Below are positions 6,308 to 31,253 of a DNA stretch of 32,000 nt, piece by piece. Position 1 is the first letter of the stretch. Each line of letters opens with the position of its first letter. Below the pieces are notes generated by a model, which was not told the origin of the DNA, searched no databases, and saw only the letters and a program-made list of their open reading frames with translations. The stretch is from Planctomycetales bacterium (GTDB taxonomy: Bacteria; 4484-113; JAFGCY01), in the NCBI GenBank assembly GCA_022646745.1, contig CP060262.1:360001-392000 (forward strand), given 5' to 3'. The position numbers were made by a program, and so were the translations under genes.

Positions 6308-6400
6308 AACAGATGATACCGCCAATCACGGGAAATGTGCGGGCCGCACGGAAAATCAATTCACCTGCTGGCTCAGTGCTGCCGGGTGTGTCTGTCTTAG

Positions 6401-6688
6401 ACCGACAAGGTCCCCTAGCTCTGAGAGCTACATTCCATTGAAAAGCAATTAGTGTTGAGCAATGAGTGCTGAGCCAAACTTCCGCCGTGCTTGCCTGGCT
6501 CATTGCTCACTCTTCATTGCTCATTGCTGCCTGGTATGTTGTTCTATGACCAACAAGGCCCTGTAGCTCCGCGAGCTACATTCCATTGAACAGCAATGAG
6601 TGCTGAGCAATGAGTGCTGAGCCAAACTTTTGCCGTGCTTGTCTGGCTCATTGCTCACTCTTCATTGCTCATTGCTTCGCTTCTCCAT
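6401..6688. repeat. Tandem direct duplication (period 148 bp, 2 copies) of a composite element: GTAG-type hairpin plus inverted CATTGCTCA word arrays
   Basis: Copy 1 starts at 6401 (ACCGACAAGG...) and copy 2 at 6549 (ACCAACAAGG...). Both contain AGCTC-NNN-GAGCTACATTCCATTGAA, then GAGCAATGAGTGCTGAGCCAAACTT..GCCGTGCTTG.CTGG, then CTCATTGCTCACTCTTCATTGCTCATTGC (6499-6527 and 6647-6675). Copy 2 has the intact hairpin GTAGCTC-CGC-GAGCTAC at 6563-6579. Confidence 0.85.
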
Positions 6689-7541: not shown

Positions 7542-7709
7542 TCAGGCCCACGGCCTGACAGGAGGCCAATCCCACGGATTGGCAACTGCCTTTTGCCTTT
7601 TGCCTACTGCCTTGTGCCTACTAAAGCGGTCCTTGGGACCGCATACCTGTCAGGCCATGGGCCTGACCTCCACTGACTACAGACCACTGACCACTGCCCA
7701 CTGATTGCC
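7542..7709. repeat. Intergenic mosaic between convergent genes: four 3-nt-loop hairpins plus GCCTTTT and CTGACCA word arrays
   Basis: TCAGGCC-CAC-GGCCTGA at 7542-7558. GCCAATCC-CAC-GGATTGGC at 7565-7583. GCCTTTT/GCCTACT/GCCTTGT array at 7587-7621. GCGGTCC-TTG-GGACCGC at 7626-7642. TCAGGCC-ATG-GGCCTGA at 7650-7666. CTGACC/CACTGAC word array at 7663-7709. Confidence 0.8.
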
Positions 7710-10752: not shown

Positions 10753-10773
10753 GGGGAAAGTATAGGGGAAGTG

Positions 10774-10952
10774 CTCAGTGGTCGGAAGTCAGTGGGCAGA
10801 AGCAGAATGAGAATGAGAATCAGAAGAAGAATCAGAATGAGGGGCAGGTTGGGAACCTTATGACTGACAACTAAGTTCTGCTGCTTCTGCTTCTGCTTCT
10901 GCTTCTGCTTCTGATTCTCTCCCTGACCACTGACCACTGGCTACTGACCACT
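10774..10952. repeat. Nested word palindrome A-B-centre-B'-A', same architecture as 2689-2844, including (CTGCTT)5
   Basis: A is 10774-10799, CAGTGGTCGGAAGTCAGTGGGCAG. B is 10800-10842, GAGAAT/CAGAAG/CAGAAT hexamer words. The centre is 10843-10875. B' is 10876-10922, with exact (CTGCTT)5 at 10881-10910. A' is 10923-10952, CTGACCACTGACCACTGGCTACTGACCACT. Confidence 0.85.
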
Positions 10953-12481: not shown

Positions 12482-12986
12482 GGTTGGAGTTTGGAGTGGG
12501 GAGTTTGGAGGAGCCGGAGGTGCGCAACTTGTTTGCGCACAATGCAGCGCTGGGACAGTCTGGATAGTTCGAATAGTAGGAATAGTGGAAGAAGTTGTTA
12601 GTAGCTTAGTTCTTAGTAGCGGTGCCCTCGCCGCTAGGGAGGCCCGATGTCAGTCGGGCAAAAGGCAGAAGGCAAAGGGCAGAAGGCAGGGTTCGGAGGT
12701 GCGCAATCACGCCGTGGGCGTGACGCACAATACAGCGCTGGACGGGAGCCGTAGGGCAAGGCCACCCTGCCTTGCTCAGGAGGTCATTATCCACGCACTG
12801 CATCCGGCGGCTGTGAGCTGCCGCTACGGTCAAACACCTTAACTATCAATACTATTCCAACTATTCAAACTGTTCTGTACGGCTGGCACCAGCCAGCCTG
12901 GGCAATGCCCGGTGTGTGGCTCTTAGAGCCACAAGGCCCTGTAGCTCTAAGAGCTACACTCCCTCAAACCTGAACCCTCCTTCCCT
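12482..12986. repeat. ~500-nt non-coding mosaic with nested inverted word arrays and several hairpin modules
   Basis: Outer arms are the GGAGTTTGGAG words (12482-12511) against CACTCCCTCAAACCTGAACCCTCC (12957-12986). Inner arms are the GAATAGT/TTAGTAGC words (12562-12620) against AACTATCAATACTATTCCAACTATTCAAAC (12837-12877). Inside are two copies of CGGAGGTGCGCAA-hairpin-GCACAAT.CAGCGCTGG (12515-12555, 12694-12743), a GGCAAAAGGCAGAAGG array (12657-12691), and the hairpins GTGGCTC-TTA-GAGCCAC (12916-12932) and GTAGCTC-TAA-GAGCTAC (12941-12957). Confidence 0.8.
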
Positions 12987-13154: not shown

Positions 13155-14117
<963 letters not shown>

Positions 14118-14118
14118 G

Positions 14119-15297
14119 ATGCGCATCCTGCTGCGAGCATGCATCCTGCTGACCTGCCTTGCTGCCACATGGCTGGCGGGCAGTGTGCAGGCGACCGCGG
14201 CACCGAGCAACCTCTACTTCATTGACGACTTCAGCGGCGAAAGCGGCACCTATTTCTACAGCGGCCAGCTGGACGAGCGCCGCTTCGGCTATGACAAGGG
14301 CCAGTACCGCATCGACACCAGCGGCAGCGAGGCCTACGGCCAGAGCGTGCTGCTGGAGGACCTCGAGGAGTACAGCGTGGAGGTCAGCGCGCAGCTCCTG
14401 GACTCCAGCGACAAGGACGGCGGCGGCTTCGGCATCAGCTTCAACTACAACGAGCGCCAGGGCGGCTCGGACTTCATGCTGTTCCTGATCTACAACCGCG
14501 GCGCCTTCGCCGTGCTGCGCTACAAGGATGACAAGACGAGCGTCGTCACCAGCCCGCAGCTGACCGACCTCGTCAAGCCCGGCAAGCCCGTGCAGCTCGG
14601 GGTTGACAACACCCGCGGCCAGCTGACCTTCTACATCAACGGCGTCGAGGTGCATTCGCTGAAGGAGACGCAGCTCACGCGCGGCGGCTTCGGGATGTTC
14701 GCCACCCGGCGCAGCCTGGTGCAGTATGACGACTTCAAGGTGTTCGCCGACCGCCCGACGCCAAAGATTTTCAAGGACGACTTCTCCACAGATGCCAGCT
14801 TCTACAAGGGCAGCTATGGCGAGGTGGAGTACTACTACCGCGACAAGCGCTACTACATCAACACGCTGGACACGCAGTACATCGGGCTCTCGCCCTTCCC
14901 GGAGAAGGCGATGAACTTCGACCTCAGCGTCGACGTGGAGCTGGTGCAGGGTGAGCCGCAGGGCGGCTACGGGATCTACATCCGCGACTGGGAGACGGGG
15001 GGAGGCGGCTTCAACCAGTTCCGCTTCCTGGTAGCCGACGGCTGGTACGCGATTGAGCAGAGCGTGGAGGACCGCCCGCTGGCGCTGTCACAGTGGACGC
15101 AGCATAGCGCGGTGCGCCTGACTGGGGTGAACCGCCTGCGGGTGGTGGCCCAGGATGGGAAGCTCAGCTTCTTCATCAACGGGGTGGAGGTCTACAAGCA
15201 CACCGACGACATGCCGCACATGGGCGACTTCGGCCTGTATGCGGCGGGGGGCGTCGAGGTGGCGTTTGACAACCTCGAATTTCTGCCGCTGCAATAG
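14119..15297 (+). CDS. Secreted protein with two tandem jelly-roll (concanavalin/LamG-like) domains, function unknown
   Basis: I prefer ATG 14119 (MRILLRACILLTCLAATWLAGSVQA, a signal peptide) over the listed GTG 14107, which would overlap the upstream gene. Internal duplication: both halves share DDFS...Y...G.Y.I, GG.GI, G.L.F.INGVEV and ..D.F.V. The fold assignment is by pattern only. Confidence 0.7.
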   Translation: MRILLRACILLTCLAATWLAGSVQATAAPSNLYFIDDFSGESGTYFYSGQLDERRFGYDKGQYRIDTSGSEAYGQSVLLEDLEEYSVEVSAQLLDSSDKDGGGFGISFNYNERQGGSDFMLFLIYNRGAFAVLRYKDDKTSVVTSPQLTDLVKPGKPVQLGVDNTRGQLTFYINGVEVHSLKETQLTRGGFGMFATRRSLVQYDDFKVFADRPTPKIFKDDFSTDASFYKGSYGEVEYYYRDKRYYINTLDTQYIGLSPFPEKAMNFDLSVDVELVQGEPQGGYGIYIRDWETGGGGFNQFRFLVADGWYAIEQSVEDRPLALSQWTQHSAVRLTGVNRLRVVAQDGKLSFFINGVEVYKHTDDMPHMGDFGLYAAGGVEVAFDNLEFLPLQ

Positions 15298-15412
15298 TGG
15301 TCAGTAGTCAGTGGTCGGTGGTCAGATTGCCCTGCCAACTGCTTGATCCCTTGATACTTTTTCAGTGTTAGAGAAAGCCAGCCTATATCAGTGGTCAGTA
15401 GTCAGTGGTCAG
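15297..15412. repeat. Two direct GTGGTCA/GTAGTCA heptamer arrays (15297-15325, 15389-15412) flanking a 63-nt spacer
   Basis: GTGGTCAGTAGTCAGTGGTCGGTGGTCAG begins inside stop codon TAG 15295-15297. CAGTGGTCAGTAGTCAGTGGTCAG is at 15389-15412. The inverted partner is at 15869-15895. Confidence 0.85.
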
Positions 15413-15428
15413 ATCAACCCGCTTTTCG

Positions 15429-15812
15429 CTAACCCTTCTGGTTACCAGGCATTGAAGCAGCAACCTTATTCCTGACTGAGTAAAGCAATCTGCAAGTCTC
15501 GTCCAACAACCTGTAGGCATCAGCAAGGTTTCTGCCGGAAACGTAGCCAAGCTTCTGGGAAACAAACAATAGCGTGTCCAGCTCCCTTGCGGATCCCAAA
15601 GCCATTGAAAGAAAGTGGGCGTAGTCCCTGGCTGTTGACCTCGCATTGCCCTCAGCGATGTTTGCCGGAATTGACACTGCAGCTCTTTGGATCTGTGAAC
15701 TAATTCCATAAATTTCCCGGCGAGGGAATCCTTCCGTCAGGCCATAAACCGACTCAACCAGCTCAACAGCCCTCTGCCATACGATCAAATTCCTGTGGGA
15801 TGCCTTTGTCAT
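15429..15812 (-). CDS. Four-helix-bundle protein (23S rRNA intervening-sequence protein / Avd-like family)
   Basis: 127 aa from ATG 15810-15812. The sequence NLIVWQRAVELVESVYGLTEGFPRREIYGISSQIQRAAVSIPANIAEGNARSTARDYAHFLSMALGSARELDTLL matches the conserved pattern of this family (W..A..L...vY..t..fP..E.y.l.sQirRAa.SI..NIAEG..r.s..d...fl.iA.GS..El.t.l). It is visibly lower in GC than the flanking genes. The upstream ATGs in the ORF track lie beyond the predicted promoter. Confidence 0.85.
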   Translation of the reverse strand: MTKASHRNLIVWQRAVELVESVYGLTEGFPRREIYGISSQIQRAAVSIPANIAEGNARSTARDYAHFLSMALGSARELDTLLFVSQKLGYVSGRNLADAYRLLDETCRLLYSVRNKVAASMPGNQKG

Positions 15813-15821
15813 AACAAATGA

Positions 15822-15850
15822 ATAGTACAATAAATATTGACTTCTGTCAA
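15822..15850 (-). promoter_or_regulatory. Sigma70-like promoter of the four-helix-bundle gene, giving a near-leaderless transcript
   Basis: The minus strand reads TTGACA (reverse complement of 15845-15850), 17 nt, then TACTAT (reverse complement of 15822-15827), then 9 nt to the ATG. The -35 is embedded in the palindrome ATTGAC-TTCT-GTCAAT. Confidence 0.5.
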
Positions 15851-15868
15851 TCATTTTTTTGTCTTTAT

Positions 15869-15895
15869 TGACCACCGACCACTGACCACTGACCA
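15869..15895. repeat. TGACCAC heptamer array, inverted partner of 15297-15412
   Basis: TGACCACCGACCACTGACCACTGACCA is the reverse complement of the GTGGTCA word family. Together with 15389-15412 it brackets the four-helix-bundle gene and its promoter. Confidence 0.85.
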
Positions 15896-16017
15896 AACGA
15901 AAGTTACTTCCGAGCAGTCAGTATTCAGTACGGAGGTGCCGTAAAATGAATCTTTTCGAGCATCCGACTTTCCTTTGGGTAGAATTAAAACAGCCAGGTA
16001 ACCAAGGCGGAGACTGA

Positions 16018-17955: not shown

Positions 17956-18026
17956 TCCTGCACAGCTGTTAGCGGGCGCTGGCAGCGGGTATAAAGCACG
18001 GACCACGCGTGGTCCGGGGAGCTGAC

Positions 18027-20405
18027 ATGAGATACGGCAGACAGATGATCGCCATGCTGCTTTGCGCAGTGCTGGCCCTGGCATCCTGCGGCGGCAATGC
18101 ACGCCCAGGCGATGCAGCGCTGGAAGCAGCAGTGTCCCCGCAGGCCACACTCAGGCTCGACGGACTGGAGCTGCTGGATGGCAGCATGCTGGACGAAGCA
18201 GGCTCCCGTGGCATCAGCGTGCAATGGTCCGATGTCAATGGCCAGCCCGTGGCCAGCATCCTTGCCGAGGGCGTGCAGGACCTGCGCGCGCTGTACTTCT
18301 CTCTTGAGCATGACAATACCCTGCAGGCCGGGGCATTCACGGCCGGCGACTGGGCGGCTGGCAACAGCCTCAGCCTGGCCCTCACTCCAGAGGCAGGGCA
18401 CAGCGAGGCCGGTATTGTGCTTGTCAATCCTGAGGGTGGCGATGGCTTCAGCGGCAGCGGGGTGCTGGCAACGCTTGCCTTCGATGCAGCTGGCAGAAAC
18501 CCCAAATCCGCCAGTGCTGCGCCGAACACGGAAGCCTCGCGCATGCAGCTCTACTTCGCGCCCGACTTCGGCCTGCTGTACTGGTACTACCGCAACCAGG
18601 GTGACTATGACCAGAACGGCGAGGTGAACATCTCCGACCTGACCCCGCTGGCAATCCACTTCGGCAAGGCCGCCGCCGGCGGAAGCTTTGACTTCACGAA
18701 GGTCGAATCCGTGGTGGACGGCGATGGCAACGGGGAGATCAACATTTCCGACATCTCACCGATCGGCGCCAACTTCGGCAACTCCGTGCAGGATTTCAAT
18801 CTCTATTTCGGCACGATGGTTGACTACCCCGCCAACCCCGGCGACACGCCGGGCGGGCTGGAGATCGAGAGCTGGCCGCTGGCCGATGCATCGGGGGAGG
18901 CTGCCTCCCAGCGGCTGTACTTCACGAAGCAGCTGCCGATCATGGTCCCGGTGGCCAGCGGGCTGTGGCTGCATCCGGTCAGCGGCAGCTCGATCGGCAT
19001 CGCCAGTACCTCAGTCGGCTTCGGCAACCAGTCGCCGCAGGTCCAGCTGCAGGCGGCACCGCTCACCGGAGTGGCCCCGTTCAGTGTCAGCGCGGATGGC
19101 AGCGCATCCAGCGACCCCGATGGCGACCCGCTGTCCTACACCTGGGTGTTCGGTGACCTGACGGCGCTGTACACCAGTGACGCCCTGTACAACCCGGCTG
19201 ACATGGGAGCGCAGTTCAGCGTGGACGTGGAGGCGGGGGGCGAGTACGTGCTGATCCTGATGGTGCGCGACCCGCAGGGCGCAGTGGCCTTCCAGGTGCA
19301 GGATGTGGTGGCGGTTGACAGCGCCGGCTGGCAGATCCGCGAGTTCGACGTGACCGGGAACCACCCCACGCTGGAGACGATCTTTGACGTGGACGTCTGC
19401 GAGGTGGCCGGGCTGCCGACGATCGCCTACGCCTACAAGCAGGGCGCCACCGGCGGGCACGTCTACCTGCTGCAGGGGGATTCCCTGTTCGATGGCGACT
19501 GGGACATTGACAATTTCGTTTACGGGCAGAGCGGCACGGACTTCTGCGAGGTGGCGGTGGCTGAGATTGACGGTACTGCGGCTGTGGCGGCGTCCTACGA
19601 CCGCGGTGGCAACGGTGAGGCGGTGTTCGCGCGCCAGGTCGAGAGCGGCGGGACGGACATGTACAACACCGTGCTGTTTGAGCAGTCCACCGGCGCGCTC
19701 AGCGGGGTCGACCTGGCGAACATCGACGGGCAGGCGATGGTCGCCTACCGCAACAATGCCACAGGTGAGCTGCGCTTCTGCGTGGCGATTGACGACAGTG
19801 CGCAGAACTTCGTCGGGCCGTTCAATGTCGGCATCACCGGCGCCCCGAGCTCGCAGATCTGCCTGGCGGAGGTGCAGGGTGCACCGGCCTTCAGCTACTG
19901 GGCCGGGCCATCCAGCAACCGCCTGCGTTACCACACCGCGGTGATGAACGGCCCGCTGCCGGTGTTCAACAGCGGCACCACGCTCGCCGTACTGACCAGC
20001 TGCTACCTTTCCGATGCACTGATCGTCAGGGAGGATGGCAGCCCCTCGGTGCTGTTTGACATCCCGGTGAACACGGCGATCTACGGCCTGCGCGCCGCCG
20101 ACCCGCAGGCCTCGATGTGGACCGCCGACGGCGAGATCTCGCAGCAGGGTGCGGCGATCGGCGAGTACTGCGCCGGGATGCATGGCGGCCGGCCGGCGAT
20201 CCTGTGGTACGACTTCCTCACCGCCGAGCTGTACTACCAGCGCGCGGCGGATGCCGATGGCACCAGCTGGGAAGCTGCCGTGCTGGTTGACGACAGCCTC
20301 GCACTGGGCACCCGGCCCTGCATGGCGGAAGTACTCGGCGTGCCGGTGATCGCCTACATCGACAAGGGCCGCAACATGATCTGCTACGGGATATACGTGG
20401 AATAG
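18027..20405 (+). CDS. Lipoprotein with cohesin-like, dockerin-like, PKD-like and Asp-box-variant propeller regions
   Basis: I prefer ATG 18027 (MRYGRQMIAMLLCAVLALAS-C-GG lipobox) over the listed GTG 18009. Cohesin-like segment at ~18130-18500 (..SGSGVLATLAFDA). Dockerin-like pair GDYDQNGEVNISDLTPLAIHFG / DGDGNGEINISDISPIGANFG at ~18598-18783. PKD-like segment (APFSVSADGSASSDPDGDPLSYTWVFGD). C-terminal ~50-aa repeats with G.P.IAY...L.Y.RAADADGTSW. Confidence 0.8.
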   Translation: MRYGRQMIAMLLCAVLALASCGGNARPGDAALEAAVSPQATLRLDGLELLDGSMLDEAGSRGISVQWSDVNGQPVASILAEGVQDLRALYFSLEHDNTLQAGAFTAGDWAAGNSLSLALTPEAGHSEAGIVLVNPEGGDGFSGSGVLATLAFDAAGRNPKSASAAPNTEASRMQLYFAPDFGLLYWYYRNQGDYDQNGEVNISDLTPLAIHFGKAAAGGSFDFTKVESVVDGDGNGEINISDISPIGANFGNSVQDFNLYFGTMVDYPANPGDTPGGLEIESWPLADASGEAASQRLYFTKQLPIMVPVASGLWLHPVSGSSIGIASTSVGFGNQSPQVQLQAAPLTGVAPFSVSADGSASSDPDGDPLSYTWVFGDLTALYTSDALYNPADMGAQFSVDVEAGGEYVLILMVRDPQGAVAFQVQDVVAVDSAGWQIREFDVTGNHPTLETIFDVDVCEVAGLPTIAYAYKQGATGGHVYLLQGDSLFDGDWDIDNFVYGQSGTDFCEVAVAEIDGTAAVAASYDRGGNGEAVFARQVESGGTDMYNTVLFEQSTGALSGVDLANIDGQAMVAYRNNATGELRFCVAIDDSAQNFVGPFNVGITGAPSSQICLAEVQGAPAFSYWAGPSSNRLRYHTAVMNGPLPVFNSGTTLAVLTSCYLSDALIVREDGSPSVLFDIPVNTAIYGLRAADPQASMWTADGEISQQGAAIGEYCAGMHGGRPAILWYDFLTAELYYQRAADADGTSWEAAVLVDDSLALGTRPCMAEVLGVPVIAYIDKGRNMICYGIYVE

Positions 20406-21191
20406 GGAGCAGGGAGCAGAGAGCTGAAAGCAGGGAGCAGGTTGGAGCTACCCGCTTCAGCGGTAATAACTCGCTTTGCTCGGTTAACATCGAGGTAGGT
20501 ATGCAGCGGTTATCCTGAGCGCTAAGGCGCGAAGACGCGAAGGAAAAGAAGACTTGGCAGACTCATTGCTCACTCTTCATTGCTCATTGCTTCGCTGCAT
20601 GCACTCCCAAGCGCACGCAGCGTGCGCCGCTACGTTGCTTTCATTCGAGAGGCAAAACATTATTGCCAATCTTCTCCGCGCCTCACTAAAACTCTGCGTC
20701 TCCGCGTCAAAAAAACCGGACTGGCGAGCACGAAGCTTCTCGCGCGGCTGCGTGCCACGCATCGGCTCGCTACACTCGGGCACTATGAGGAATCCATGCG
20801 AAGGTTTTGTCAACGCGGAGTCGCGGAGGAAGTCGGAGGTGCGCAACTTGTTTGCGCACAATGGAACGCCTCACATAAGCTCGGGTGACAGCGAGGAAGC
20901 ATTCCCGGTTTTCTTTAACACAGAGATTCACAGAGTTCCACAGAGGAATTCAATGTTCGTCAGGCTCATTGCTCACTCTTCATTGCTCATTGCTTCGCGG
21001 CATGCATACCCATTCGCTGCAGGGGACGTTCCGTCGGTGTCTGTGTTTTCTTCGTGTCTTCGTGACTTCGTGGTCAGTCCAGTGCTGTCATGGTCACGAA
21101 GGCACGAAGCGCAATCTGCTTGTTGCCAGGCCAGACTGCCATGCGGAATTCCTGGCATGCACTCCCAATTGCGCCGGGGGCGCACCGCTAC
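20406..21191. repeat. ~780-nt non-coding mosaic of shared repeat modules
   Basis: Modules in order:
- GGGAGCAG array, 20405-20445
- GCTAAGGCGCGAAGACGCGAAGGAA, 20521-20545
- CATTGCTCA array, 20562-20590
- GCATGCACTCCCAA-hairpin-CGCTAC, 20597-20633
- CTTCTCC..TCCGCGTCAA..GGCGAGCA module, 20671-20756
- CGGAGGTGCGCAACTTGTTTGCGCACAATG, 20834-20864
- CACAGAG array, 20919-20946
- second CATTGCTCA array, 20965-20993
- inverted TTCGTG arrays, 21048-21073 and 21092-21112
- second GCATGCACTCCCAA-hairpin-CGCTAC, 21155-21191
The ORF-track entries here (20554-21375, 20885-21499 and others) translate repeat words. Confidence 0.8.
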
Positions 21192-21607
21192 ACCCCGACC
21201 GGCTGAGCTGCCTTCCCGTTGCCCATTCCATTCAGCCCGGCCAGTCCCTTCTCGGCCAGCTTTGCCAGCTCAGCCCTTTCCCACTCCGGGAACAGCCAGT
21301 CCGGCAGGCCCTTCAGGCAACGCAGGATGCTCGAGAGTTCGCTGGCCTTCTTCACGTTGCCAAGCTGCTCATTGAGCTTGTGGCGGATCAGCGAGGCCAT
21401 TTCCTTCACCCCCATGCGCTGGGCCAGCTGGTGGTGCTGCTTCATGCGGCGCAGCAGGTTGTGCTGGTCCTTGAGGATGGCGTGGGTCTCCGTGTCTGAG
21501 AAGCCGGCGGCCTTCAGCCCGGCCTGGTCCATGTTGCCTGAGCTGATCAGGCACCAAAGCAGCGCACGGATACAGGGGTCGTCATGCAGTTTCTGGCAAA
21601 GATCCAT
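21188..21607 (-). CDS. Small hypothetical protein (139 aa), possibly a helix-turn-helix protein
   Basis: I prefer ATG 21605-21607, preceded by GGGAGAGG (reverse complement of 21613-21620), over the listed upstream start. The segment LISSGNMDQAGLKAAGFSDTETHAILKDQ loosely resembles the HTH of phage small-terminase-like proteins (..gN..qAa..AGyS...a). The resemblance is weak and unverified. An AT-rich promoter island lies upstream. Confidence 0.55.
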   Translation of the reverse strand: MDLCQKLHDDPCIRALLWCLISSGNMDQAGLKAAGFSDTETHAILKDQHNLLRRMKQHHQLAQRMGVKEMASLIRHKLNEQLGNVKKASELSSILRCLKGLPDWLFPEWERAELAKLAEKGLAGLNGMGNGKAAQPVGV

Positions 21608-21670
21608 TTTGTCCTCTCCCTGCGGGTCGGCCGGAATATGAATGCACAACCCACACTATCTACTACACAA

Positions 21671-21698
21671 AAATTACCATAAATATTAAATCTGTCAA
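21671..21698 (-). promoter_or_regulatory. Sigma70-like promoter of the 139-aa gene
   Basis: The minus strand reads TTGACA (reverse complement of 21693-21698), 16 nt, then TAATTT (reverse complement of 21671-21676). It shares TTGACAGA...AATATTTAT.GTA with the promoter at 15822-15850. Confidence 0.4.
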
Positions 21699-21752
21699 GT
21701 TTTTGCAAGGTTAATTGCTTGCTTTGTCATCCGCACCATAGCTTCGCCAGAT

Positions 21753-21782
21753 TTGACAGCAGGCAAACAGAAAGGGTATACA
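21753..21782 (+). promoter_or_regulatory. Sigma70-like promoter of the first tandem lipoprotein gene
   Basis: TTGACA at 21753-21758, an 18-nt spacer, TATACA at 21777-21782, then AAGGAA 7 nt before ATG 21810. The whole block is duplicated at 24556-24612. Confidence 0.5.
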
Positions 21783-21809
21783 TCGGGCATCTCCTGAAAG
21801 GAATATCCG

Positions 21810-24539
21810 ATGACTGCTTACTGCCTGCGAGTGCTGCCTGCCGGCCTGCTTGCTCTGCTTCTCGCCTCTTGTGGAGGATCCACAACGTCCCAGAGCCCCG
21901 CTTCCCTGCATGAAGCGGCATTGGAGCTGCCTGAGATGGCCGGAATTCAGTGGCCTGCGGAGCTGCCTGCGGATGCCCTGCAGCCCTGGGAACGGGAGGC
22001 CAGCGGCATCAGCGCGGAATCCGAATTCCTGCCGGGGCGCGAAGCCTTCAGCAGCAGCCTGGCGGGTGCCAGCGAGAACGGTGAGGCCACGCGGCTGGAA
22101 AGCAGCACAGGCCAGTCCGCATGGGCGAGCTACCGGATCCCCACGGGCGGCGAGGCCCCGGGAGTTCTATCACTCGACGTGAACCTGCTGGCGCCAGATG
22201 CAGGTGGTGCATCGGAATACTTCGTCGGGCTGGCAAACTACGGCACGGGCCGCTGGCAGTGGCGCGGGCCATTCTCCGACAGCCATGTGCGCCTTGCCCT
22301 GCCGGACAGCGGAATGCTCAGCCCGGTAAACAGCTTCTTCGCCACTGTGCTCTGCCACAGGGGCAGCCGGATTGACATCGTGGGACTTGGCCTCGGGATG
22401 CGGATTGCCGACGACAGCACAGCGCCGCCAATGCCAATCGCCCTGACCGCCACGCCCGTGGCCGGCGGTGCCGAATTGCAGTGGTTCCCCGTGCTTTCAG
22501 GCGACCTGGCGGGCTATGAGCTCTTCTGGGCCGGGCAGTCCTTCAGCAACCCGCAGTCCGCCGGAGTGCGTAACCTTGGCTACATCGAAGGAAGCACGCA
22601 CACGGTGCTCAGCGGACTGGGCGGCGAGACATTCCTGCGCATTCGCTCCGTGGACCTGAATGGCAACGCCAGTGAACTGTCGGACGAGGTTTCCTTCACA
22701 GCACTCGCCGGCTCCGGGCCCAGCCTGCTTGTCAGTGCGGGATCCGCCAGTGCCGGGCTTGGTGAGGCGGTCAGTGTCAGCGTGAGCGGGGCCGAAAGCT
22801 ACGACTACGACACGGATGGCAACGGTGATTTCGACATCACGGCTGACAGCTCCGGCAGCTTCAGTGTGGACACCAGCCGCCCAGGCATCATCCGCCCACG
22901 CGTGCGCGCCAGCGGCAGCGGTGGCGAAGCGGTGGCCCTGGGCTCGGTCAGCCTGATCGTCACCAGCAACTCGCGGCCCGTTGCCAGCGCCACGGCGGAC
23001 CCGCAGAGCGGCCTGGCGCCACTGGACGTGACATTCACGGGTGAGGCCGAGGATGCCGAGGATGAGCAAAGCGCGCTGGAATTCGCCTGGGACTTCGACG
23101 GTGACGGCATCTTTGAAGTGGGGACCGATACGCTGACGCCTCCGCTGCAGAACTATGCGTCCGCGGGCATCATCAACGCCAAGCTGCGGGTGACCGACAG
23201 CCAGGGTGCCTGGGACGTTGACACGATCTCCATCCTGGCAACGGATGGCGGTGTCCATGCCGAACTGGCAATGGCACAGAGCCTGATCGGCAAGGGCGAG
23301 TATGCCATCTTCAGCGCGGAATCCAGCACTTCCTCGTCAATGATCACCAAGTATGAATGGGACCTGGACGGCGACCTGGTTTTCGAACTGGACACGGGCT
23401 TGGACCCGCTGCTGAAGCGGAGCTTTGACACGGTCGGCTTCCAGCAGGTTGCGCTGCGGGTCACGGATGACCTGGGCCGCTTCGATATTGACATTGACAC
23501 GCTGGTGGTGGAGGGCTGGTCCGACCCGGCGGACGTACCCGGGACCACCGGTAGCTTCATCAGCTACAGCACAGAGGTGGCCGGCTTCCCGGCCATCAGC
23601 TATGGGAACTCAGGAACGAACCAGATGATGTTTATCCGGGCCCTGGACTGGCAGGGAACCGCATGGGGAACACCAGTCGGAATCGGGGAACCGGGGCTTG
23701 ATGTGTACTATCCCCGGATGATCATCGTCAATGGCAACCCGGCGGTGGTCTACAGCGGCATCTCGGACGAACAGCTGCACTACGTACGTGCGCTGGATGC
23801 TGAAGGCAGCAGCTGGGCGGCCCCGATGGTTGTCACGACGGATGTCAGTGAGTCGGACATCAAGGGCCTGATCGTCGCTGACGGCAACCCGGCCATCAGC
23901 TACAAGCGCAAGAGTGACGGCGCCCTGATGTACGTCCGGGCGGTCAATCCGGAGGGCAGTGCGTGGAGCGCGCCGCTGGTCGTGGACAACAGCACCTCAT
24001 ATGCCGGCAGTGACATGGAGATAGTCAACGGGCGTCCCTGCATCGCCGCACGCAAGCAGAGCCCCAGCGAGCTCCACTGGTTCAGGGCGGCGAATCCGCA
24101 GGGCAGCTCCTGGGGCGCAGCGGTGGTGGTTGACGATGTCAACGTGGCGGGCCTGTATGCCGACATCGTGGTCACGGGCGGGCGGCCGGGGATATTCTAC
24201 CTTGACAATGACACCATCAAGTGGGTCATGTTCTGCATTGCTTCCGACATAAATGGATCTGCCTGGGAAACGCCGGTGCAGCTTGACAATGGCAGCAATG
24301 CCAACTCAAACCATGGAGCAGCGGTGATAGACGGCCGGCCGGCCGTCGGCTACAAGAATCCCGCCTTCGGCACGATGTTCATCCAGGCCAAGGATGCCCT
24401 GGGAAGCGATTGGGAAGCGCCGCAGGTCGTGATCCCGGCGGAACATGGCTTTCCCCACATGTGTGCCGTGGCTGACAGGCCTTTCGTTGTGATCGCGGGT
24501 AACAGCGGCAGCCTGACTTTCACTAATTTCAGACCCTAG
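21810..24539 (+). CDS. Large lipoprotein: unknown N-domain, FN3-like, PKD-like repeats, C-terminal 6-7-blade Asp-box-variant propeller
   Basis: 909 aa. Signal plus lipobox LLLAS-C-GGS. FN3-like segment (PIALTATPVAGGAELQWFPVLSGDLAGYELFW...LRIRSVDLNGNASELSDEV). PKD-like segments (LAPLDVTFTGEA...FAWDFDGDGIFE...AKLRVTDSQGAWDVD and YEWDLDGDLVFE...VALRVTDDLGRFDID). C-terminal repeats of ~50 aa with G(N/R)PA(I/V).Y...L.Y(V/I)RA.(D/N)..G(S/T).W..P. Confidence 0.85.
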   Translation: MTAYCLRVLPAGLLALLLASCGGSTTSQSPASLHEAALELPEMAGIQWPAELPADALQPWEREASGISAESEFLPGREAFSSSLAGASENGEATRLESSTGQSAWASYRIPTGGEAPGVLSLDVNLLAPDAGGASEYFVGLANYGTGRWQWRGPFSDSHVRLALPDSGMLSPVNSFFATVLCHRGSRIDIVGLGLGMRIADDSTAPPMPIALTATPVAGGAELQWFPVLSGDLAGYELFWAGQSFSNPQSAGVRNLGYIEGSTHTVLSGLGGETFLRIRSVDLNGNASELSDEVSFTALAGSGPSLLVSAGSASAGLGEAVSVSVSGAESYDYDTDGNGDFDITADSSGSFSVDTSRPGIIRPRVRASGSGGEAVALGSVSLIVTSNSRPVASATADPQSGLAPLDVTFTGEAEDAEDEQSALEFAWDFDGDGIFEVGTDTLTPPLQNYASAGIINAKLRVTDSQGAWDVDTISILATDGGVHAELAMAQSLIGKGEYAIFSAESSTSSSMITKYEWDLDGDLVFELDTGLDPLLKRSFDTVGFQQVALRVTDDLGRFDIDIDTLVVEGWSDPADVPGTTGSFISYSTEVAGFPAISYGNSGTNQMMFIRALDWQGTAWGTPVGIGEPGLDVYYPRMIIVNGNPAVVYSGISDEQLHYVRALDAEGSSWAAPMVVTTDVSESDIKGLIVADGNPAISYKRKSDGALMYVRAVNPEGSAWSAPLVVDNSTSYAGSDMEIVNGRPCIAARKQSPSELHWFRAANPQGSSWGAAVVVDDVNVAGLYADIVVTGGRPGIFYLDNDTIKWVMFCIASDINGSAWETPVQLDNGSNANSNHGAAVIDGRPAVGYKNPAFGTMFIQAKDALGSDWEAPQVVIPAEHGFPHMCAVADRPFVVIAGNSGSLTFTNFRP

Positions 24540-24555: not shown

Positions 24556-24585
24556 TTGACAGGGGCAAAGCAGAAAGGGTATACA
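24556..24585 (+). promoter_or_regulatory. Sigma70-like promoter of the second tandem lipoprotein gene (duplicate of 21753-21782)
   Basis: TTGACA at 24556-24561, an 18-nt spacer, then TATACA at 24580-24585. The TTG start used by the ORF track at 24556 is the first three bases of this -35 hexamer. Confidence 0.5.
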
Positions 24586-24612
24586 TCAGGCATCTCCTGC
24601 AAGGAATATCCA

Positions 24613-27429
24613 ATGTCTGCTTACTGCCTGAGACTGCTGCCTGCCAGCCTGCTTGCCATGCTTCTTGCCTCTTGTGGAGGGTCCACAACCGTCCAGAGCC
24701 CTGCTTCCCTACCGGTCGAGAAAGCGGAGCTGCCTGAGATGGCCGGAATGCAGAGGCCTGCGGAACTGCCTGCGGATGCAGTGCAGCCCTGGGAACGGGA
24801 GGCGAGTGGGATCAGCGCGGAGTCGGAATTCCTGCCGGGGCGTGAAGCCTTCAGCACCAGCCTGACCGGAGCCAGTGAGAACGGTGAGGCCACCCGGCTG
24901 GAAAGCAGTTCCGGCCAGTCCGCCTGGGCCACATACCGGATCCCCACGGGCGGGGAAGCACCGGGAGTGCTCTCGCTGGATGTCAACATGCTGGCCCACT
25001 CCGATGCCGGCCTGTCGGAATACTACGTGGGAGTTGCCAACTACGGCACGGGCCGCTGGCAGTGGCAGGGTCCCTTTTCAGACAGCCACGTGCGCCTCGC
25101 CCTACCGGAGAACGGCGCGCTCAGTTCCGTGAACAGCTTCTTCGCCACCCTGCTCTGCCACGGTGGCAGCAATGTTGATATCGTGGGAGTCGGCCTCGGG
25201 ATGCGCAATGCGGATGACAACACACCGCCACCAGTGCCGATCGCCCTGACCGCCACGCCCGTGGCCGGCGGTGCCGAATTGCAGTGGTTCCCCGTGCTTT
25301 CAGGCGACCTGGCCGGCTATGAGATCTTCTGGTCCAGCCAGACCTTCTCGGCAGTGGAAGATGCCGGCGTGCGCAGCCGGGGCTGGATCGAGGGCAGCAC
25401 CCATACAGTACTGACAGGGCTGGCAGGAGAGACATTCATACGTGTGCGTTCTGTTGACCACAATGGCAACGCCAGTGAGTTTTCCGATGAGGTGGCAGTC
25501 ACTCCGCTGGTCGGAGCAGCCCTGCCCCTGCTCGTCAGTATTGACAGTGTCAGCAGCGGAGTGGGCGATCCCATCAGCATCACAGTGAGCGGGGCGGACA
25601 GCTATGACTATGACACGGATGGCAACGGCGTGTTCGACATCACCGGTGATGCAGGCGGCAGCTTCTCGGTTGACACATCGCAGCCCGGCATCATCCGCCC
25701 ACGGGTGCGGGCCAGCGGCAGCGGCGGGGAGCGGGTGGCACTGGGCTCCGTCAGCCTGATCGTCAGCAGCAACTCGCGGCCCGTTGCCAGCGCCACATCC
25801 GACAAGTCCGTGGACTACCTGGACTATGGCGGTTTCCAGGATGCGGCAATCACCTACACTGGTATTGCCGAGGACCAGGAGGACAGTGAGGAACAGCTCA
25901 GTTTCGCCTGGGACTTCGATGGCGACGGCATATACGAAGCGGATACGGATACACTGGCACCCGGCACGGTGCAGTACGACACGCCTGGTTCATATAACGT
26001 GAAGTTCCGGGCCACCGATTCCGCCGGTGCCTGGGATGTGGACACGCTCAACATTGACATCCGCATCAACCAGCCGCCGGTGGTGTACATTTCCGGTCCC
26101 AACAGGCTGTACCTGATGCCTGATGGCATCACGATCTTCAACAACTACTCCGTCACGGCCATGAATCCCGAAGGTGAGGAGGAGCTGAACTTCTACTTCG
26201 ATGAAGATGGCGATGGCAACCATGAGCAGACTGACACGGATGAGGAGAGTGCCAGCTTCGGTGTCACCTATGAGCGAGCCGGGCTCTATCCGGTGAGGGT
26301 CGAGGTGTACGACAGCAGGGGAGCTGCGGGGGTTGCCCAGATGATGGTGGAGGTCTACAACCATTCCCCGACCCGCGTGGAGACGGGAGCGCTTGACGGC
26401 ATCTCCAGTTCGCTGGTCGGCTTCCGGGGCGGCATCGCCCTCGCCTACCGCGACGGACTCGCTGATGAGCTGGAATTCATGTTCAGCCATGACAGCAGCG
26501 GCACGAACTGGACGGAGCCCCTGGTGCTCTCGGGAGCGGATGTCTGCAGCGGCCAGGTCAGCATCATGGCGGATGCCGGCGAGAATTACCTGGTGATCAC
26601 CTACAAGGATGAAACCACCGGAGACCTGCGCTTTGTGGAGAAGGATAGCGTGAACGGCGGCGGTGCCTGGACGGCACCTGCCTCGATTGACAGCGGACCG
26701 CAGTATGGGATCTATAACTCGCTGGTATTCAACGAGGACCTGTTCCGCTTCGGCTGCTTCTACTATGACGAGGACAATGGCGACCTGCTCTATGTACAGG
26801 CCACCAATGACAAGGGTACGTCCTGGGGCACACCCGTGAACGTGGTGTCCAACGCCGATGACACGGGGCAGTACTGCTCGGCGCAGATCGTGGATGGCAA
26901 CCCTGCGGTCTGCTACTACAACGTCTCGGACCAGGACCTGGAGTACATCCGCGCCGATGATGCCAACGGAACCAGCTGGGGCGCGATCATCGACGCCCAC
27001 AGTGTCAATGGCGAGGACGTCGGTGTGAACTGCCGTATGGCGCTTGGCCGCATCGGCTTTCCGATCATCGCCTTCAACAACCTGACAACCAACCGCATCC
27101 ACTACATCCGTTCCAACAATGCCCAGGGATCCAGCTGGGCCTACGACGACGGCGACCCGCTGGCGAACCTGAGCGGCGGGGACGGTTCTCTGTGCATCGG
27201 ATTCGATGGCACCCGCGCCTTTGCCGCGATGCACGTGAACGGGAAACTGTGGGTTTCGCAGGCCTTCTCCTTCAACAACACAAATTGGACCCCGGCCCGC
27301 CTGATTGACGATGACGACAGCGACAATGTCGGGCTCAACCCGGCGGTGGCCCTTGTGAACGGCCGCTATGTCGTGAGCTACTTCGACGAGGACAGCGGGG
27401 ACCTGAAGGTGCTGCTGCCCCGTTACTGA
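24613..27429 (+). CDS. Large lipoprotein, tandem paralog of 21810-24539 with an extra PKD-like module and a divergent propeller
   Basis: 938 aa from ATG 24613 (MSAYCLRLLPASLLAMLLAS-C-GGS). The first ~400 aa are closely similar to the upstream paralog, including a 74-nt identical DNA run (25240-25313 = 22437-22510). The C-terminal repeats carry SHDSSGTNW, ATNDKGTSW, ADDANGTSW and SNNAQGSSW. Confidence 0.85.
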   Translation: MSAYCLRLLPASLLAMLLASCGGSTTVQSPASLPVEKAELPEMAGMQRPAELPADAVQPWEREASGISAESEFLPGREAFSTSLTGASENGEATRLESSSGQSAWATYRIPTGGEAPGVLSLDVNMLAHSDAGLSEYYVGVANYGTGRWQWQGPFSDSHVRLALPENGALSSVNSFFATLLCHGGSNVDIVGVGLGMRNADDNTPPPVPIALTATPVAGGAELQWFPVLSGDLAGYEIFWSSQTFSAVEDAGVRSRGWIEGSTHTVLTGLAGETFIRVRSVDHNGNASEFSDEVAVTPLVGAALPLLVSIDSVSSGVGDPISITVSGADSYDYDTDGNGVFDITGDAGGSFSVDTSQPGIIRPRVRASGSGGERVALGSVSLIVSSNSRPVASATSDKSVDYLDYGGFQDAAITYTGIAEDQEDSEEQLSFAWDFDGDGIYEADTDTLAPGTVQYDTPGSYNVKFRATDSAGAWDVDTLNIDIRINQPPVVYISGPNRLYLMPDGITIFNNYSVTAMNPEGEEELNFYFDEDGDGNHEQTDTDEESASFGVTYERAGLYPVRVEVYDSRGAAGVAQMMVEVYNHSPTRVETGALDGISSSLVGFRGGIALAYRDGLADELEFMFSHDSSGTNWTEPLVLSGADVCSGQVSIMADAGENYLVITYKDETTGDLRFVEKDSVNGGGAWTAPASIDSGPQYGIYNSLVFNEDLFRFGCFYYDEDNGDLLYVQATNDKGTSWGTPVNVVSNADDTGQYCSAQIVDGNPAVCYYNVSDQDLEYIRADDANGTSWGAIIDAHSVNGEDVGVNCRMALGRIGFPIIAFNNLTTNRIHYIRSNNAQGSSWAYDDGDPLANLSGGDGSLCIGFDGTRAFAAMHVNGKLWVSQAFSFNNTNWTPARLIDDDDSDNVGLNPAVALVNGRYVVSYFDEDSGDLKVLLPRY

Positions 27430-30719: not shown

Positions 30720-31253
30720 ATGAAGATCATCACCGACATCAACGACGAGCATTTCGACATCGATATCCACGTCGACACCGCCACCGAGGAGGGTTTCCTC
30801 GCGACGGTGAACGGGCGGCAGGTGCACATGCGCATCATCGAGCACAAGCCGACCTCGCTGACGCTGTCAATCGACGGGCATGTCGGCTTCTACGAATTCC
30901 GCAAGGACAAGGGCCGGCTCGTGGAGGTGATCCACGCCAACCGCTCCTTCCGCAGCGACATGAAGAACCCGCAGCAGGACTCGCTGGAGAAGCTGCTGGA
31001 GGCGATGGGTGCCGGCATGGGCGGCGGCAGTGCGGAGACCAACGTGGTGGCGCCGATGCCGGGCAAGGTGCTTGGCGTGTCCTGCAAGCCGGGCGAGAAG
31101 GTCGAGCTCGGGCAGATCGTGCTGGTGCTTGAGGCGATGAAGATGGAGAACGAGATCGGCAGCGTCTGCGAGGGCACCGTGCGCAAGGTGAACATCAAGG
31201 CCGGGGATACGGTGGCGGTTGGCGACGTGCTGATCGAGGTGGACCCGCAGTAG
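30720..31253 (+). CDS. Biotin/lipoyl-attachment protein (BCCP-like) with a ~100-aa N-terminal beta-rich region
   Basis: 177 aa. The C-terminal 70 aa are a biotinyl domain with the EAMKMENEI biotinylation motif. The start is 8 nt after the biotin carboxylase stop. Confidence 0.85.
   Translation: MKIITDINDEHFDIDIHVDTATEEGFLATVNGRQVHMRIIEHKPTSLTLSIDGHVGFYEFRKDKGRLVEVIHANRSFRSDMKNPQQDSLEKLLEAMGAGMGGGSAETNVVAPMPGKVLGVSCKPGEKVELGQIVLVLEAMKMENEIGSVCEGTVRKVNIKAGDTVAVGDVLIEVDPQ

Follow-up and report, generated by a model that had tools for sequence, protein, structure and literature searches.

A 23S rRNA intervening-sequence-family gene between inverted heptanucleotide arrays: a probable IVS-type cassette between protein-coding genes of a Planctomycetales bacterium

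Proteins of the 23S rRNA intervening sequence (IVS) family were named in the 1990s, had a structure solved in 2006 and are found in thousands of genomes, and to our knowledge the family is still without a function. In many bacteria, no other long simple repeat is as over-represented as the heptanucleotide tandem repeat, and we know of no explanation for this excess. Both are present at one locus of a Planctomycetales bacterium, which raises the question of what kind of genetic unit a gene of this family forms with the inverted arrays of a 7-nt word that bracket it. The locus was studied within a window of 32,000 nt, the whole stretch of DNA that was analysed (contig CP060262.1, positions 360,001 to 392,000), and compared with homologous loci.

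The gene encodes a 127-aa four-helix-bundle (4HB) protein of PF05635/TIGR02436 and is located at 15429-15812 on the minus strand, with its ATG at 15812, antisense to the two protein-coding genes between which it lies. Beyond its 3' end are two direct copies of a heptamer array. The outer one (15296-15325), G-rich on the plus strand, consists of ~4.3 units of GTGGTCA/GTAGTCA/GTGGTCG as detected by TRF (the A word) and overlaps the TAG stop codon of the upstream gene (15295-15297), and the inner one (15388-15412) contains ~3.6 units and lies 17 nt past the 4HB stop codon. The 62-nt spacer between them (15326-15387), read directly from the sequence, is missing in the L092 ortholog, where a single array is present on that side. 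At the other end, 56 nt upstream of the ATG, an inverted array with TGACCAC units on the plus strand (15869-15895) provides the G-rich 5' arm on the sense strand of the gene. The best inverted pair is 15298-15324 and 15869-15895 (27 nt, 96% complementary), while the inner copy pairs with 15869-15895 over 24 nt at 92%. The outer array, which the earlier note took as an extra direct copy, does exist, and it is the better stem partner of the inverted array, not an extra. A fourth, short A-like direct copy, AGTCAGTATTCAGT (15913-15929, repeat family D1), is conserved in the P0002 ortholog and, by pairing locally with 15869-15895, could give rise to an alternative hairpin. A promoter-like site, TTGACA-N17-TACTAT (15850-15822, minus strand), is located inside the arrays, and since only 9 nt separate its end from the ATG, a leaderless or nearly leaderless mRNA is implied. 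In the P0002 and L092 orthologs, the distance between these hexamers and the ATG is 8-9 nt, and the layout of the P0186 paralog is similar.

Profile matches, TRF and the sequence thus bear out the earlier description of the locus as a 127-aa IVS-family gene with its own promoter-like site between arrays. The enclosed segment is also AT-richer than its flanks, as had been claimed, with a GC content of 0.43-0.51 over 15250-15999 vs 0.63-0.69 further out on both sides; the cassette region is 12 GC points under its surroundings, and the 4HB gene itself has a GC content of 0.50. The 15-mer GTGGTCAGTRGTCAG occurs 22 times in the window when up to two mismatches are allowed (shuffle mean 0.11). No Rfam family and no tRNA were found in the window, and the cassette is not inserted in an rRNA helix tip, the site being between two protein-coding genes.

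Profile searches place the protein in PF05635 (E 1.2e-34, 119.2 bits, cut-off 33.8) and TIGR02436 (E 7.5e-33, 113 bits, cut-off 24), with a match to PDB 2GSC (XCC0516) at E 2.7e-25. Its AF2 model has four helices (pLDDT 93.8) and was matched by Foldseek to 2GSC (TM 0.82-0.96, rmsd 0.7-0.8 Å), to 2RLD (BT_0352; TM 0.73-0.89) and to Avd (4DWL, 8UB7; TM 0.70-0.87). The S-x3-NIAEG motif previously noted for the family (PMC3936711) is present, with N51, I52, A53, E54 and G55 invariant and S47 at least 90% conserved among 68 aligned homologs. XCC0516 is described in PMC4990558, citing Lin et al. 2006, as a homopentameric ring. The 4HB protein is moderately basic (16 K+R vs 11 D+E), and its gene is under purifying selection (pN 0.117 vs pS 0.779 against the 80% ortholog). 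Neither paralog of this genome was matched by the PADLOC defence-protein models, and no phage homolog was found. The Avd-like fold, together with weak matches to Avd models, would allow the gene to be read as a DGR remnant, in which an Avd accessory protein has lost the reverse transcriptase and the template/variable repeats. The Avd scores, however, are far under the cut-offs (22.5 bits for the Avd equivalog NF033474, cut-off 80; 18.3 for Pfam bAvd PF22296, cut-off 40), sequence identity is 13-18% to Avd vs 44-45% to XCC0516, and no reverse transcriptase was found among the main ORFs scanned in the 32-kb window. This origin is therefore effectively refuted at this locus and retains next to no probability.

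The combination of gene and arrays extends well beyond this genome. Arrays are present on both sides of the gene in 57 of 82 homologous loci from many phyla, with complementary words in 50 (61%), whereas 20 of 4,033 same-length intervals from the same loci (0.5%) pass the identical test. Arrays of this kind are therefore not equally common around unrelated genes, and one non-4HB cargo was found between arrays (L061). Period 7 was found for 141 of the 166 arrays near 4HB genes in the 82 loci, and other period-7 arrays within 20 kb around the gene are few (0-6 in most loci). The 50 paired cassettes have a median span of 485 nt and ~4.5 units per arm; the G-rich arm is 5' in 48 of them, and the 5' array ends at most 35 nt from the start codon in 33. 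In 78 of 81 loci, the 4HB gene has a lower GC content than its host, the mean difference being 8.3 points. None of the eight CPR loci checked has an rRNA context. A 4HB gene with inverted arrays is thus the norm for the PF05635 family across phyla. Moreover, the flanking word follows the protein phylogeny (Mantel-type rho 0.149, reached in none of 2,000 permutations), and related proteins from different phyla have words in common, showing that word and protein lineage travel together.

Comparison of filled and empty sites shows that gene and arrays enter genomes as one unit. In Picosynechococcus PCC 7003 the cassette lies between cmr2 and cmr3, a site that in PCC 7002 is an array-free spacer of 12 nt. 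Of the copies of a Nostoc plasmid operon, four are filled, and the two empty ones that were retrieved read TAG-GTT-ATG. The empty sites, in sister plasmids of cyanobacteria, lack both the gene and the arrays, indicating that the unit inserts whole. No target-site duplication was found at the filled sites in these two comparisons, and no transposase, integrase or reverse transcriptase was found among the main ORFs scanned in the window. Array-free empty sites also bear on the idea that the heptamer hairpins belong to the ordinary intergenic equipment of the host, for instance as terminators or stabilisers, and that the 4HB gene tends to land in or beside them without any functional coupling. 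Period-7 arrays of many words (at least eight) do occupy nearly every intergenic gap of the window, some of them nested, and a metagenome scan for the exact A-type array yielded mostly solo arrays and short hairpins, with a 4HB match at two of 80 loci, 42 of the 80 being near contig ends. However, arrays that arrive with the gene, the scarcity of other period-7 arrays around most of the 82 loci, the outcome of the control test and the sharing of word and protein between different phyla all argue against an uncoupled passenger, an already disfavoured explanation that we regard as very improbable. Given a 4HB match at only two of 80 array loci, the arrays are unusable for locating the genes.

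At the locus itself, the cassette is found at the same site in three further lineages, so that, as the earlier note had proposed to compare, the gene is seen to be kept there together with its arrays. In L092, the flanking proteins are 78% and 72% identical, the 4HB protein is 63% identical and the word is A-like. In L012, the flanks are closer (85% and 80% aa identity), yet the 4HB protein is only 53% identical and the word is different. The cassette was kept at one locus while the neighbouring proteins diverged to 72-85% identity, which indicates that movement is rare. L093, which looked like an independent relative at 93%, was dropped; its differences cluster at contig ends and it is otherwise identical, which makes it the same strain and no lineage of its own. 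Other copies of the gene are array-flanked too. This genome has at least two paralogs according to protein searches, the second of which, P0186, is bracketed by inverted GGCAGAA arrays, and inverted arrays likewise flank two paralogs in a related MAG; the word of P0003 is AGGCAGT. None of the three observations that the earlier note named as refuting its interpretation was made.

Taken together, these data suggest that the locus is probably an IVS-type insertion cassette, situated between protein-coding genes and not in rRNA, which RNase III would process in host transcripts. The unit spans ~0.45-0.6 kb, with a PF05635 gene, in this window under its own promoter, set between a G-rich tandem array of heptanucleotides and its C-rich complement. 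Wherever a host transcript runs across the cassette, the arrays would pair into a stem of ~27-30 bp. In line with this, the 27-nt, 96% stem closes both the MFE and the centroid predicted RNA folds on both strands (z-scores -4.9 and -4.4). The analogy is supported by the IVS of Coxiella, which is 428-444 nt long with a 28-bp terminal stem and carries three to four GACAGAT repeats ahead of the ORF start, their number varying by strain, with the RNase III cut at the first repeat (PMC4990558). By analogy with this one experimental system, RNase III would cut the cassette stem and remove the cassette RNA from the host transcript, and we propose that insertion would thereby be harmless, even within operons. 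The promoter-like site lies inside the arrays, so the mRNA made from it would be stemless, having just the C-rich arrays at its 3' end; a stem could arise only in read-through or antisense transcripts, and the internal promoter would drive the gene independently of it. The Coxiella protein is probably not made, according to the authors of that study (PMC4990558). Here, the basic protein, a pentamer of the Avd fold by homology, is a putative nucleic-acid binder that may help to maintain or spread the cassette and its gene-less array relatives.

The arrays may also act on translation, as they adjoin host stop codons and many of their words contain TAG (36 of 71 words, ~17% being estimated from base composition). 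A stop codon in a 7-nt repeat falls in all three frames, and we propose that incoming translation would thus be halted; a stop is also present on the other strand in 33 of the 71 words, and the idea fits only in part. A frame of at least 100 codons ends at most 10 nt from the outer array edge in 33 of the 50 cassettes, an uncontrolled figure that carries no weight, since spurious frames, too, would be cut short by arrays that have stops in every frame.

The arrays could instead work as DNA, with the 4HB protein as a repressor that binds the heptamers and regulates its own gene, and with the inverted arrays serving DNA looping and not an RNA stem. Both the promoter-like site and the gene are bracketed by arrays, the protein is moderately basic, and some regulators, those of the SARP family, are described as binding tandem direct heptamers (PMC5930380). 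However, the 5' array is so close to the start codon (at most 35 nt in 33 of 50 cassettes) that there is no promoter room between them, the same build occurs inside rRNA and operons that are transcribed from outside, and a known DNA-binding motif is absent from the fold, making such an operator improbable.

The IVS-type cassette reading has to account for arrays that carry no gene, which greatly outnumber the genes. A nested gene-less palindrome at 2688-2845 has outer A-type arms (2688-2716 and 2816-2845) and inner CAGAAT-type arms, and its arms contain the stop codons (2686-2688 and 2841-2843) of two convergent genes. A second one, at 10771-10952, is A-type outside and CAGAAT/CTGCTT inside, and between its right half and 2775-2845 identity is 77%. 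A solo A-type array, C-rich on the plus strand, lies at 7670-7704; outside the cassette, A-type arrays are present at four places in the window. The GGCAGAA word that brackets P0186 also occurs gene-less in the window, in a GGCAGAA/GGCAAAA array at 12657-12689 with an inverted copy at 7587-7619. Among arrays neighbouring cassettes, 65 of 199 match the word of their own cassette vs 8.6 ± 7.2 by permutation, and counted by locus, 21 of 47 have an own-word match vs 4.0 ± 1.8, showing that gene-less copies of the cassette word are dispersed across the host genome. The common word, the polarity and this own-word excess lend partial support to the proposal of the earlier note that the two "empty" A-type palindromes are cargo-less cassettes, and they may derive from cassettes. 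However, they have nothing but the word in common with the cassette and contain an extra inner array of the CAGAAT type. When the whole window was searched in six frames with a sensitive profile, the regions of gene-less arrays yielded no 4HB remnant, leaving cargo loss without direct support.

The scattering of own words invites a comparison with REPIN/RAYT systems, in which a single-copy gene is flanked by an inverted short repeat that is also scattered intergenically, often as hairpin-forming doublets, different paralogs accompany different repeat families, and the RAYT proteins belong to the HUH tyrosine transposases, whose DNA-cleaving fold is known. REP/REPIN elements with RAYT genes are reportedly the subject of work by Nunvar et al. 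in 2010 and by Bertels and Rainey in 2011. By this comparison, a 4HB pentamer would recognise its own word and create, spread or maintain gene-less arrays, the flanking arrays being the "master" copy and RNA processing being secondary. The word differs from paralog to paralog (GTGGTCA at this locus, GGCAGAA at P0186, AGGCAGT at P0003), and these words are found again gene-less nearby. The A word is retained in three lineages despite saturated synonymous sites, which points to constraint on the sequence itself or to concerted evolution, and not to pairing alone. In addition, Xanthomonas has 186 GGGAATC arrays, one of which adjoins XCC0516, and Avd, with the same fold, is part of a ribonucleoprotein with RNA (PDB 8UB7). 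On the other hand, the protein is without a nuclease or transposase fold, nucleic-acid binding is documented for no PF05635 protein in the literature searched, the word-protein correlation is modest (rho 0.15) and could be explained by co-inheritance alone, and at least eight words in the window stand against at least two paralogs found in this genome. We therefore consider a REPIN/RAYT-like role possible but tentative, and retain the IVS-type cassette as the preferred reading.

A wider generalisation, which we put forward as doubtful, is that PF05635 proteins are the trans-acting partner of heptanucleotide repeats, each recognising a 7-mer word of its own, riding in a cassette that this word bounds, and seeding or maintaining palindromes and gene-less arrays of it genome-wide, as a REPIN/RAYT-like system based on a non-enzymatic pentamer. 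If this were true, the heptamer excess, seen as STRR in cyanobacteria and as GGGAATC in Xanthomonas, would have an explanation, and the IVS protein would have a function, so that the two may be one problem. No paper describing a general link between PF05635 genes and heptanucleotide repeats was found in the literature searched. The association of gene and arrays shown above makes both questions testable in cultured Nostoc punctiforme, Picosynechococcus PCC 7002/7003 and Xanthomonas campestris. There are also practical consequences: the PF05635 family may score as CRISPR-associated because cassettes insert within cmr operons, short-read assemblies may break near PF05635 genes because of the repeats, and gene callers may run reading frames on into the arrays.

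Among known systems, REPIN/RAYT resembles the cassette in that a gene is flanked by inverted copies of a genome-dispersed repeat. It differs in that the RAYT is an HUH/Y1 transposase, whereas the cassette protein is a four-helix bundle with no catalytic fold, and in that REPINs are fixed palindromes, whereas the cassette repeats are tandem heptamer arrays. MITEs and small insertion sequences are likewise discrete units with terminal inverted repeats, filled and empty sites and possible gene-less derivatives, but the cassette has no transposase and shows no target-site duplication, and its terminal word varies from cassette to cassette. Avd (4DWL, 8UB7) is, like the cassette protein, a small basic four-helix bundle. 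It works bound to RNA and a reverse transcriptase, whereas the cassette is without a reverse transcriptase, template or variable repeats, and the cassette protein, at 13-18% identity, stays under the Avd family cut-offs.

Bacterial heptanucleotide repeats, such as GGGAATC of Xanthomonas (PMC4692102), TAACTGA of Beggiatoaceae (PMC4679880) and the cyanobacterial STRR, are intergenic, G-rich and often arranged as convergent inverted pairs, of which Xanthomonas has 70-75 (PMC4692102). Those two studies draw no connection between the repeats and PF05635, whereas the cassette repeats bracket such a gene, and the Xanthomonas supplement includes a GGGAATC array that overlaps the XCC0516 start (PMC4692102). 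The ORF-bearing 23S rRNA IVSs of Coxiella burnetii, Leptospira and Brucella (PMC4990558) encode the same protein family and are of a like size class (428-444 nt vs a median span of 485 nt). They have in common with the cassette the terminal inverted repeats, a stem of ~28 bp, tandem heptamers before the ORF, an AT content above that of the host and a suspected horizontal transfer. Unlike them, the cassette lies outside any rRNA helix, carries a promoter-like site of its own and is antisense to its neighbours. Purifying selection on its protein is clear, in contrast to the ORF of Coxiella, which was considered to be decaying and probably untranslated (PMC4990558).

The four-helix-bundle (4HB) gene of the window (15429-15812, minus strand) encodes a 127-aa protein matching PF05635 (23S rRNA intervening-sequence protein; E = 1.2e-34) and TIGR02436 (four helix bundle protein; E = 7.5e-33), and scoring far under the cut-offs of the models for Avd, the accessory protein of diversity-generating retroelements. 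Period-7 arrays were located by Tandem Repeats Finder at 15296-15325 (outer near array), 15388-15412 (inner near array) and 15869-15895 (far array). Complementarity of the far array extends over 27 nt (96%) with the outer near array and over 24 nt (92%) with the inner near array. These data bear out the earlier note, which had described a 127-aa gene of the 23S intervening-sequence (IVS) family between inverted arrays of the heptamer GTGGTCA (A word), with an extra direct copy at 15297-15325. The promoter and AT-rich enclosed segment that it reported were also recovered: a TTGACA-N17-TACTAT site ends 9 nt ahead of the ATG, and GC falls to 0.43-0.51 across the element against 62% for the whole window. 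A 15-mer of the A word matches the window 22 times versus 0.11 in shuffles, a recurrence far above chance. The cassette is flanked by ordinary plus-strand chromosomal genes, one ending at the array with a weak 3-keto-disaccharide hydrolase-like match and the other with a sub-threshold cohesin-like match. No reverse transcriptase, transposase or integrase was found in the scanned main ORFs of the window.

A protein-guided scan with one genome per species gave, among the matches listed, 80 loci (10-kb flanks), and with the window and one more locus these form a set of 82. The hosts of the 80 belong to Planctomycetota, Cyanobacteria, Acidobacteriota, Gemmatimonadota, Chloroflexota, Bacteroidota, Patescibacteria, Proteobacteria, Bacillota, a spirochaete and others. 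A short-period array lies within 300 nt of the gene at 78/82 loci and on both sides at 57/82, and 141 of 166 nearby arrays have period 7. Words are complementary between the two sides at 50/82 loci, against 20 of 4,033 same-length control intervals (0.5%) passing the same test. Gene plus inverted arrays is the rule for the 4HB family, in line with the earlier note's expectation that other copies would be flanked and unrelated genes would not be equally so. The typical cassette spans 485 nt and has arms of ~4.5 units; its 5' array ends a median of 23.5 nt before the start codon and its 3' array begins a median of 7 nt after the stop codon, with the last residues sometimes array-encoded. The G-rich arm is the 5' arm in 48 of 50 cassettes, a polarity valid for both strands because the inverted repeat is symmetric, and gene-less A-type hairpins in metagenomes have the same polarity (20/20).

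Variants of this build were also observed. In a deltaproteobacterial MAG (L061, 1293-1841), inverted AGGGATC-type arrays between arginine-pathway-like genes surround an AT-rich 140-aa ORF that is not a four-helix bundle and has no Pfam match; such cassettes may therefore carry other cargo. A paralog in a related MAG (L098, 9735-9880 and 10440-10740) is bracketed not by simple heptamers but by inverted arrays of a composite ~30-60-nt unit built of heptamer-like sub-units. At locus L054 (5670-6156), AGTGGAT arrays and their complement lie inside a 1,264-aa ORF and encode repeated peptide inserts (EKWIVD..., STN[YH]YPLSTK). Most short-read metagenome contigs carrying the window gene or its 80% ortholog (L001-L010) are shorter than 2 kb, and at least L009, the contig read from end to end, stops ~50 nt or less from the arrays, which fits assembly breaks at dispersed repeats.

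Two natural comparisons of filled and empty sites, both in cultured cyanobacteria, bear on whether the arrays move with the gene. In Picosynechococcus PCC 7003 (L100, 1466-1893), a cassette with GGAGATA-type arms lies between the cmr2 stop and the cmr3 start, and on plasmid pAQ6 of PCC 7002 (L222) the cmr2-cmr3 gap is 12 nt without arrays. In a Nostoc plasmid operon, the insertion point is identical in four filled copies, whose TCAGGAG arms have 5 or 8 units, and two empty copies read TAG-GTT-ATG without arrays; search matches suggest that the gene is missing from other copies as well. Since the empty sites have no arrays, the arrays are part of the mobile unit rather than pre-existing host hairpins. 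No target-site duplication was seen at the Picosynechococcus and Nostoc sites. The PCC 7003 cassette lies inside a type III-B cmr operon, with a published Pleurocapsa example at the same place. Two CRISPR surveys list the 4HB family as CRISPR-associated, a scoring that insertion within cmr operons may explain.

Words and proteins are tied to each other. Similarity of the flanking words correlates with protein identity (rho 0.149, reached by 0 of 2,000 permutations), mean identity being 57% for identical words versus 43-44% for dissimilar words. Related proteins of different phyla have words in common, such as the TAGTGGG type (a Chloroflexota MAG, a gammaproteobacterium and an unclassified MAG) and the AGGTGTC type (Blastocatellia, Acidimicrobiia and Chloroploca). 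At the window's own locus the whole cassette, rather than the gene without arrays, is present in three further lineages: P0002 (4HB identity 80%, word A), L092 (neighbour proteins 78% and 72%, 4HB 63%, A-like word) and L012 (neighbour proteins 85% and 80%, 4HB 53%, TTGGAGG-type word). The neighbours of L012 are closer than those of L092, yet its 4HB protein is more distant and its word different, a pattern suggesting either that one cassette replaced another at a fixed site or that protein and word diverged fast together.

At 78 of 81 loci the 4HB gene has a lower GC content than the flanking host DNA (mean gap 8.3 points), in hosts ranging from 37% to 71% GC. Between the window gene and its 80%-identical ortholog, non-synonymous divergence is 0.117 per site against a saturated synonymous 0.779, so selection maintains the protein. 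Composition and substitution pattern thus indicate a gene that is foreign yet functional. Structure prediction confidently gives a four-helix bundle, nearly superimposable on XCC0516 of Xanthomonas campestris (2GSC), then closest to BT_0352 (2RLD) and then to Avd. Homology with Avd leads us to think that the protein binds nucleic acid, possibly its own arrays.

The words are also dispersed without the gene. Of the remaining period-7 arrays within the 10-kb flanks, 65/199 match the resident cassette's word (8.6 ± 7.2 under permutation); counted by locus with one very repeat-rich case left out, 21/47 have such a match (4.0 ± 1.8). Dispersal is extreme in Chloroploca sp. Khr17 (L027, 4500-20000), with more than 30 period-7 arrays in 20 kb, 29/30 carrying the resident TGTCAGG-type word. 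The window's genome has a second 4HB paralog (P0186), likewise bracketed, by seven units of GGCAGAA with a TTGGAGG array further out; both words also occur gene-less within the window. X. campestris, source of the solved structure closest to the window protein, has 186 GGGAATC arrays in a published list, one overlapping the XCC0516 start. Exact A-type arrays at 80 metagenome loci were accompanied by a 4HB match in only 2 cases; arrays are far more numerous than 4HB genes.

Nearly all intergenic gaps of the window hold short-period arrays of many words (for example GTGGTCA, GGCAGAA, TTGGAGT, AATGAGC, CATCCCG and CAGAAT), several forming nested palindromes. The suggestion that the A-type palindromes at 2688-2845 and 10771-10952 are cargo-less cassettes stands in part: the common A word supports a family relationship, but neither contains a 4HB gene remnant, and both have an inner CAGAAT-type array that the 4HB cassette lacks. 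The stops of convergent aldo/keto reductase and O-methyltransferase genes (2686-2688 and 2841-2843) lie within the arms of one heptamer palindrome. A 148-nt unit with AATGAGC/GCTCATT arms and a small hairpin (ggcccc-tagctc...gagcta) is tandemly duplicated at 6371-6676 (87-88% identity), with a related 57-nt piece at 12906-12962. The first ~46 codons (13167-13305) of the ORF at 13167-14117 are probably non-coding: AATGAGC, CATCCCG and GCTCATT arrays occur within them, and the ortholog in L092 has only 270 aa. Distinct from the heptamer arrays is a dispersed ~45-nt hairpin element (GGAGGTGCGCAA...TTGCGCACAATGCAGCGCTGG; 12507-12550, 12695-12745 and 20825-20869), its copies at most 91% identical. 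Two long gene-poor stretches crowded with different arrays (20405-21810 and 31253-32000) have in common a 68-nt segment with 8-nt-unit arrays (ACGCGAAG / CTTCGTG; 20478-20545 and 31474-31540, also 21047-21073). Three large PKD-domain proteins are encoded in tandem (18009-20405, 21810-24539 and 24556-27429), the last two genes sharing 77% DNA identity across 1.5 kb.

These data show the architecture, the insertion as a unit, the selective maintenance of the protein, the word-protein tie and word dispersal; how the cassette works may be proposed as follows. A transcript crossing the cassette would fold into a closing stem of ~27 bp, predicted on both strands (z-scores -4.9 and -4.4). By analogy with Coxiella, RNase III may cut this stem, which would leave flanking host RNA with defined ends, so that an rRNA, an operon or an intergenic gap could bear the insertion. 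In the window, L092, Nostoc and Picosynechococcus, the arrays border on host stop codons or run over them; half of the words contain TAG, which a 7-nt repeat places in all three frames. The conserved promoter-like site in the window's lineage has a spacing that fits a leaderless mRNA, and 4HB expression would then be independent of the stem.

In a full-text search of open-access papers and preprints, only a Coxiella paper links the 4HB family to heptamer repeats, and the heptamer-repeat papers on Xanthomonas/Nostoc and Beggiatoaceae do not mention a 4HB protein. The IVS cassette is known in rRNA, and its generalised form outside rRNA was not found described in these sources, although an earlier description may exist elsewhere. 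None of the 8 CPR loci examined has an rRNA context. The Coxiella burnetii IVS, 428-444 nt long, is closed by a terminal stem of 28 bp and has an ORF of the 4HB family and three to four tandem GACAGAT heptamers ahead of the start codon, their number varying between strains, and its RNase III cut was mapped to the first heptamer repeat (PMC4990558). The cassette has the same anatomy as this IVS, with terminal stem, tandem heptamers and 4HB-family ORF; whereas IVS take the place of the tetraloop at an rRNA helix tip (PMC4990558), the window cassette lies between protein-coding genes.
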